DNA from: Escherichia phage ev_rybdy3
Sequence record: PQ819470.1
Length of the DNA stretch: 64,000 nt
Direction: 5' to 3' (one strand)
Part shown: piece after piece, positions 11,330 through 11,890 of the stretch
Position numbering within the stretch: the stretch's first letter is position 1
Layout of the letters: each line of letters starts with the position of its first letter
Made by a program: the position numbers and the translations under genes
Notes under the pieces: generated by a model
What the model saw: only the letters and a program-made list of their open reading frames with translations
Told to the model about the DNA's origin: nothing
The model's database searches: none

Positions 11330-11890
11330 GGGGCTAGCCGCTTCCCGCGCGTTTCCTAAAAAGGGGGAGTCCTCATTTAAAAAAGGGTTATTGGCAATGC
11401 CTTTACACCTCCTTCAACGTTCCAGCGTTTCCCCGTGCCTACTCCCCGTTATTCTTTCCCCGTGTATACTACCCAATACATTACCTACCCGTTTATTTAG
11501 TTCCCCTTTAAAGAGTGAGAGAAAGGCTATACTCTGATAAGGCACAATCATAACAGGTCTAATAATACCGTATTGTTACCGTTCAGCTCCCCATAGTTTG
11601 AATGTAAATAGTTTCAATAGTGATTGTTATGAGTGCAATAATGATGTATGTATTAATTAAGTGGATGATTATGTTTCTTTTAATAATTGATGTTTATTCT
11701 TTCCTTTTTCAGCGTGCCTTTGTGAGCGTAGCGAACGTCTTTGATGTTTGAGTTATACAATTATTTAAGTGGTATATTATTACCGCACTATCTTGCTATG
11801 TTTCCCCGTGGTCTGTCCTGCGGTTGTATTCTCCCCCGTTCGTCCTGGTCTGTTGGTCTGCTACCCGTAGCGCCAGCGTAACACCCGTAG
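11330..11890. repeat. Cluster of short CCCCGT(G/T)-type direct repeats in divergent intergenic region
   Basis: Repeated ttccccgtg / ctccccgtt / ctcccccgtt motifs in an ORF-free stretch between the leftward late block and rightward early block. Confidence 0.45.
11475..11483 (-). promoter_or_regulatory. Variant late-promoter-like element (TAATGTATt, minus strand)
   Basis: One-mismatch copy of TAATGTATA oriented toward the leftward late block. Confidence 0.3.

Follow-up and report, generated by a model that had tools for sequence, protein, structure and literature searches.

In the genome of Escherichia phage ev_rybdy3 (PQ819470.1), the leftward late genes and the rightward early genes diverge from a region that is rich in short direct repeats, which raises the question what these repeats mark. 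A first-pass annotation of the window, i.e. the whole 64,000-nt stretch of DNA analyzed here, had offered two answers, a replication origin with iterons or the vicinity of the physical genome ends and the pac site.

The 1.4 kb around the repeats are 100% identical to Escherichia phage ev_rybdy8 (PQ819471.1) and 80–95% identical to about 95 other phiEco32-like coliphages (Kuravirus and relatives). The phage of the window is a Kuravirus, i.e. phiEco32-like, and the window has the opposite orientation to the phiEco32 reference. The leftward genes on the left side of the junction comprise small homologs of phi32_1 to phi32_4, an 'ABC transporter', a phi32_6 homolog, the large terminase, and the portal gene, while the early genes on the right side start at 12078. 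The name of the 'ABC transporter' (9851–10399, PHROG 12176) looks unreliable, as it has no supporting Pfam match.

Genome ends and terminal repeat

The records of phiEco32, YF01, and SU10 end exactly at window position 11336, and the counterpart of the direct terminal repeat (DTR) of Kuravirus, 193 bp in length, aligns to 11336–11528, so that the proposed vicinity of the genome ends is borne out. Positions 1–193 of the phiEco32 record are identical to its last 193 bases, and the YF01 record annotates a "direct terminal repeat" at the corresponding place. The termini were determined experimentally, i.e. by restriction mapping and primer walking for phiEco32, by full-length nanopore reads for YF01, and by PhageTerm for Paul (PMC9965538), and sharp read drop-offs were described for SU10 (PMC4281155). 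The location of the ends was thus already published for the genus Kuravirus; the mapping applies to the relatives phiEco32, YF01, and SU10, and the position in the window follows from the alignment. The DTR would be present at both ends of the packaged genome, and its single copy in the window is, judged from the sequence, a collapsed concatemer junction. Many Kuravirus records, including the one that is identical in this region, have been opened at arbitrary points and not at the terminal repeat.

One boundary of the DTR, GGCT/AGCC (11332–11339), is an 8-bp palindrome, in which the cut (denoted by the slash) would fall between 11335 and 11336. The other boundary, GGCT/AT (11525–11530), with the cut between 11528 and 11529, reads GGCT/AG in most relatives. 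The repeat begins with AGCC and finishes with GGCT, and both boundaries can be read as being of the GGCT/AG type. The matching boundary sequences suggest that one nuclease specificity may be responsible for both cuts.

The best-conserved block of the DTR is a C-run/T-run box (C5T5 box) at 11358–11374, which reads AAAAAGGGGGAGTCCTC (GAGGACTCCCCCTTTTT on the other strand). Heterogeneity of the T-run length at this box was reported in the SU10 paper. The box is also present in the Proteus phage Privateer, in Salmonella phage 7-11, and in four metagenomic relatives.

A one-strand array of CCCGT motifs

The four repeat strings that the first-pass annotation had quoted were found at 11428–11450, 11456–11470, 11801–11823, and 11831–11852. 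The short direct repeats are genuine and share the core CCCGT, which has eight copies within 11330–11890. This interval, to which the repeats had been assigned, does contain repeats, but it proved to be too small, as the array reaches about 500 bp further to the left. The total is 13 copies of CCCGT on the plus strand and none on the minus strand of 10827–11888, compared to an expectation of 0.37 per strand (Poisson P ~2.5e-16). Elsewhere in the 64-kb window the motif occurs at background frequency, and the next-richest 1.1-kb segment has three copies. All six plus-strand copies of the longer form CCCCGT in the 64-kb window fall into the array region. The array is a genuine feature with a strict polarity, its distribution is far from random, and it extends beyond the interval first reported. 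The accessible literature appears to contain no description of it; T7 has an array of the same kind (see below).

The 13 copies are split into four inside the DTR, four in the right-end unique DNA, and five in the small-gene region at the left end. The copies in the DTR (11432–11492, plus strand) start at 11432, 11445, 11459, and 11488, with gaps of 13, 14, and 29 bp, and are 40–96 bp away from the two DTR boundaries. The right-end-proximal cluster (11805–11888, plus strand), 280–360 bp into the unique DNA, has copies at 11805, 11835, 11864, and 11884 (gaps of 30, 29, and 20 bp), and three GGTCTG elements (11810, 11847, and 11855) are interleaved with them. The left-end-proximal copies (10827–11198, plus strand) are found at 10827, 10854, 11070, 11149, and 11194. 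The last three of these are inside small leftward ORFs, and the copy at 11070 corresponds to position 323 of phiEco32, within gene 1. The description of the region as a 1.4-kb ORF-free stretch therefore holds only approximately: 11291–12077 is clearly free of genes, but the small ORFs at 10980–11141 and 11138–11290 hold three copies. The former ORF has a PHROG match, and the latter is annotated in the identical GenBank record. Read on the strand of the late genes, the plus-strand core CCCGT becomes A(C/T)GGG(G/T)A.

The two leftmost copies, 10827 and 10854, are inside a 27-nt tandem (10804–10858). The segment 10804–10912, between the phi32_3 and phi32_4 homologs, consists of this tandem (TAAAGGSCACNTCAT...CCCG) and degenerate copies of it. 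The SU10 paper put a late promoter in the equivalent gap.

The gaps within the clusters group at 12–16, 26–31, 45–46, and 58–60 bp. The best period is 14.6–15.2 bp in three Kuravirus-like lineages and ~14.7 bp in the window, a lattice that is suggestive, as the period was picked after viewing the data and the lineages are related. The helical repeat of 10.5 bp did not fit in any of the lineages tested (Kuravirus-like phages and Privateer).

The DTR and the right cluster are separated by an AT-rich spacer (11529–11800), which has its minimum of 23% GC at 11600–11699 and contains two copies of a 21-mer that includes TTAAGTGG. The highly conserved element ATTATTTAAGTGGTATATTATTACCGCAC (11760–11788) has an extended −10-like sequence, TGgTATATT, that is aimed at the right cluster. 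A weaker second ATTATTTAAGTGGTATATTATTACCGCAC copy is found 108 bp upstream (11652–11672), and the sequence is missing from the EP335/ECBP2 lineage. A strong sigma-70-type early promoter, TTGACA-16-TATAGT (12006–12033, plus strand), precedes the first rightward early gene (12078–12950). It is kept in relatives, and in the SU10 paper an early promoter was placed ahead of CDS125, the homologous gene. The published consensus sequences of promoters for phage sigma factors, i.e. tAATGTAtA for phiEco32 and GTAAtg-16-aCTA for 7-11, differ from the CCCGT motif, and this explanation was rejected. The same is true for a known RNA family, as Rfam yielded no matches in 10500–12200; a role as RNA is also improbable, given that the contexts of the three clusters differ in their transcription.

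The AT-rich trough that separates the DTR cluster from the right one fits the idea of a replication origin or priming zone at the junction, in which the two flanking CCCGT clusters would be initiator or helicase-loading sites. The minimum of the cumulative GC skew is also located at the junction, but it coincides with the switch of gene orientation and is therefore not independent evidence for an origin. The strong early promoter adjoins the AT-rich stretch, and the origins of T7 are defined by transcription beside AT-rich DNA. In addition, the GGTCTG elements of the right cluster contain TGGTC, a recognition site of the T7 primase. The iterons of lambda ori, P1 oriR, and theta plasmids are units of ~17–22 bp in helical phase. 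They resemble the array in being direct repeats beside an AT-rich stretch, but the unit of the array is far shorter, with a core of 5–8 bp, its post hoc spacing of ~14.7 bp is out of helical phase, and its copies are spread over 1.06 kb, into the terminal repeat and the small genes. The DnaA box TTWTNCACA is absent from 10600–12100, and the region likewise contains no IHF sites. At the level of annotation, with many genes that have no known function, an initiator gene is found in neither Bas90 nor Privateer, for both of which a T7/T3-type primase-helicase and DNA polymerase are listed. The proposed origin with iterons was thus not upheld, and we regard any role of the junction as origin or priming zone as improbable.

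Conservation and turnover of the motif

Sixteen relatives were examined, and the CCCGT arrays have persisted in 14 of them, among which EP335 and Bas89 have only ~70% identity in this region. In these 14 phages, the opposite strand of the region has no copy at all. The four DTR copies are retained in 13 of 14 aligned relatives (12 Kuravirus-like phages and EP335), while Bas89 is devoid of the second copy. Their spacing is 13/14/29, or 12/16/29–30 in Bas94, Bas92, and EP335; two of the copies have moved by 1–2 nt in Bas92 and Bas94 without being lost. The conservation of the motif columns is 0.94, compared to 0.825 for the remaining DTR (permutation p = 0.03). The other two of the 16 relatives constitute the TH34/TH42 lineage, which has ACCCAT or ACCCGT at the corresponding places, with ACCCAT in most copies, and a GGGTA ratio of 12:0. 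This change of the motif is concerted over all three clusters.

These results bear on the view that the repeats are functionless, i.e. remnants of local duplication or slippage, or pieces of promoters, that persist in non-coding DNA. The location of two copies within a tandem duplication is compatible with it, as is the thinning of the array in some relatives. However, the motif stays while its flanks diverge, the TH34/TH42 lineage has changed it in concert, and one-strand arrays with other motifs exist in Privateer and T7, making a lack of function very unlikely.

In Privateer, a member of the Grimontviridae, the homologous junction was recognized through its C-run/T-run box. It contains a different one-strand motif, CTATGRR, with 10 copies in 601 bp, where the frequency in 52.5 kb of the Privateer genome would predict 0.23, and no copy on the other strand. 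The gaps between the copies of this unrelated motif are 15, 27–30, and 46 bp. Salmonella phage 7-11 has a weaker equivalent, TGGAT, with a ratio of 7:0. The intermediate metagenomic relatives L107–L110 have kept the box and have far fewer repeat copies, showing that a dense array is not indispensable. The terminal-repeat regions of L107 (3830–3860) and L109 (3505–3520) contain GGGGAGGG and GGGTAGGG, which both fit GGGNAGGG, the consensus of the FtsK-orienting KOPS. In L108 (7137–10192), an ORF for a GIY-YIG homing endonuclease splits the portal gene.

The searches for further relatives had a limited yield. A search of viral contigs with gp128 retrieved four loci only, and a search with TerL retrieved, apart from phiEco32, only contigs with identities of 39–46%, which were too distant and were left out. 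The junction is absent from 5,426 E. coli genomes, which therefore gave no sign of a satellite or prophage that borrows it.

The strict restriction to one strand (13:0) is also what would be expected if the motif marked strand-specific nicks of the virion DNA, like those of T5 and the tf/LUZ24 group. The phages tf, LUZ24, and PaP3, which are relatives with respect to the capsid/terminase module, carry the one-strand nick sites TACT/RTGMC, and the (T)ACTATGRR of Privateer is partly similar to the consensus TACTRTGMC. The Kuravirus motif, however, differs from this consensus, and known nick sites are dispersed over the whole genome, whereas the copies described here are clustered in 1.06 kb around the junction. 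Furthermore, the accessible papers on phiEco32-like termini, which used run-off and read-end analysis, report no nicks. We regard nicking as a very unlikely role of the motif. Chi-like end protection was rejected as well: the motif has opposite polarities with respect to the two ends, and its sequence differs from the Chi of E. coli.

Candidate readers of the array

The reading that we favor, tentatively and without regarding it as established, is that the repeats form a platform with multiple protein-binding sites, by which the concatemer junction would be marked for the terminase, probably for its small subunit. An oligomeric DNA-binding packaging protein would occupy the ~14.7-bp lattice on replicated concatemers, and its likeliest identity would be the ring-shaped small terminase, whose gene is 1.5 kb away. 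By binding, this protein would single out the junction and provide polarity, and it would position the large terminase for cutting at both GGCT/AG repeat boundaries. The four sites inside the 193-bp DTR and the nine sites in the flanking unique DNA would represent the single-orientation sites of a T7-style packaging. The location at the mapped termini, the strand purity, the enrichment, the conservation, the concerted change of the motif, the spacing, and the like design in T7 and Privateer are all seen in the sequences. We infer each of three points separately, i.e. that the sites are bound by a protein, that this protein is the small terminase, and that packaging is the purpose.

The leading candidate for the reader is the probable small terminase subunit (TerS; 9321–9794, minus strand), the homolog of phi32_6. 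It is encoded directly upstream of the large terminase subunit (TerL; 7617–9158, minus strand; PHROG 2 and 5653), the phi32_7 counterpart of which is annotated as terminase large subunit. The two genes are the nearest conserved genes, at distances of 1.5 kb and 2.2 kb, respectively. When a profile of 20 homologs of the TerS candidate was compared with the PDB, three sequences were matched, with the TerS of NV1 (7joq) in first place (E = 0.02) and the TerS of PaP3 (6w7t) in third place (E = 0.1). When the candidate was modeled with AlphaFold (pLDDT 68), Foldseek found no significant match for the model; PaP3 TerS was in 11th place (E = 2.2). Based on HHpred similarity, phi32_6 has been published as a small-terminase candidate (PMC9965538). 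The profile matches are weak, and the assignment as probable TerS is based on them and on synteny, which counts against the favored reading. Another, 125-aa protein is called 'terminase' (13789–14166, PHROG 13168), a name that looks unreliable; the PHROG 13168 protein was described as an HNH-domain protein mis-called small terminase (PMC9965538).

The array was compared with packaging sites that are better characterized. TerS sites are, as a rule, short and repeated, as in lambda cosB, P1 pac, and SPP1 pac, and the TerS of these three phages is typically a ring in which each subunit has one helix-turn-helix. The P1 pac site has hexamers TGATCA/G, four plus three of which flank the cut. As in the array, the R sites of lambda cosB and the elements of P1 pac and SPP1 pacL/pacR are short repeats that are clustered on either side of the cleavage site, near the terminase genes. 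The reader of these elements is an oligomeric DNA-binding subunit, and in this respect the likeness of the array is putative. In contrast, the lambda, P1, and SPP1 sites lie within ~100–300 bp and their binding is experimental, whereas the array extends over ~1 kb in one orientation and is known from sequence alone. A ring-shaped TerS would be a fitting reader for an array that has polarity and a fixed, non-helical pitch; such rings, and the repeated short recognition elements of SPP1 and lambda, have been discussed before (PMC7672466).

The closest parallel to the array is found in T7. The 700-bp junction of T7 contains CCTAAAG in a ratio of 13:0, with three copies in the 160-bp repeat, eight just after it, and two before it. 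The rest of the genome, i.e. 39 kb, has nine copies, and the prevailing pitch in the junction is 13 bp. For these flanking arrays, which we take to be the SRL and SRR of Dunn and Studier 1983, we know of no function that has been established since 1983. T7 and the phage of the window both package a short terminal repeat from concatemers, and both have a one-strand motif of 5–8 bp inside the repeat and on both unique sides (13:0 in 700 bp and 13:0 in 1.06 kb, respectively). The pitches, 13 bp in T7 and ~14.7 bp and multiples thereof here, are both non-helical, bearing in mind that the latter was fitted post hoc in related lineages.

There are also clear differences. The motifs CCTAAAG and CCCGT are unrelated, and most of the T7 copies are concentrated in one dense tandem block by the left end, whereas the copies described here form three looser clusters that are 240–320 bp apart. 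T7 uses a phage-encoded RNA polymerase, and its junction contains promoters and a pause site, whereas this phage relies on the polymerase of the host together with a phage sigma factor. The families of the small terminases differ as well, as the TerS candidate weakly matches the PaP3/NV1 type and not gp18. CAGACC, the complement of the GGTCTG in the right cluster, also recurs in the array that adjoins the terminal repeat of T7 (280–340 of the T7 locus, L105).

PaP3 shares other properties with the phage of the window, i.e. a divergent junction that is followed by TerS, TerL, and portal, and a C-run/T-run box beside a genome end. It differs in that its 20-bp cos site (PMC7672466) resembles the C5T5 box and not the CCCGT repeats. 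This PaP3 20-mer, GCCGGCCCCTTTCCGCGTTA, is bound by PaP3 TerS in vitro and is the only TerS site of a related system that has experimental support. The C5T5 box is a rival candidate for the core terminase site. If TerS reads the box, as the resemblance to the DNA bound by PaP3 TerS implies it may, the repeats would be read by something else or would provide accessory contacts. PaP3 also contains eight plus-strand copies of CCCCCG(A/T/G) at 530–1130 (0.25 expected), which were rejected as a counterpart of the array because their spacing is irregular and most of them are found beside −35-like sequences (TTGTCAA/TTGACC). They are probably associated with promoters rather than forming an equivalent lattice.

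It is accordingly conceivable, though in our view unlikely, that the terminase reads only the C5T5 box and GGCT/AG, and that the repeats are bound by another phage or host protein that acts at the ends, e.g. in end protection, in the control of ejection or internalization, or in the synapsis of terminal repeats when concatemers are formed. Position, polarity, conservation, and lattice are equally compatible with such a protein, and the box is better conserved than the repeats, in addition to its similarity to the DNA bound by PaP3 TerS. Moreover, many early genes that are annotated without a function adjoin the right end. However, this explanation is without a candidate protein, and co-oriented arrays face the two physical ends with opposite polarity, which suits a directional process on the concatemer better than a symmetric function at the ends.

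The platform for the packaging machinery might have a wider distribution. A one-orientation lattice with a pitch of ~13–15 bp that straddles the terminal repeat could be a general code for junction recognition and polarity of podophages with a DTR, i.e. of Kuravirus and relatives, Privateer, and T7. It would be read by a ring-shaped TerS with one site per subunit, so that the motif would co-evolve with its reader and the geometry of the ring would set the pitch. We consider this generalization possible but doubtful.

How the terminases of phages with short DTRs find the concatemer junction and orient themselves on it is poorly understood, even in T7. At a practical level, the array and the GGCT/AG boundaries offer a sequence-based way to place the true ends in arbitrarily permuted Kuravirus records, including that of this isolate. 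The Kuravirus group represents a natural experiment, in which the architecture and, judged from the post hoc fit, the pitch are constant, while the motif drifts from CCCGT to CCCAT, and to CTATGRR in a distant relative. With more than 90 sequenced isolates and a solved TerS structure from a related family, the question of junction recognition is directly testable.
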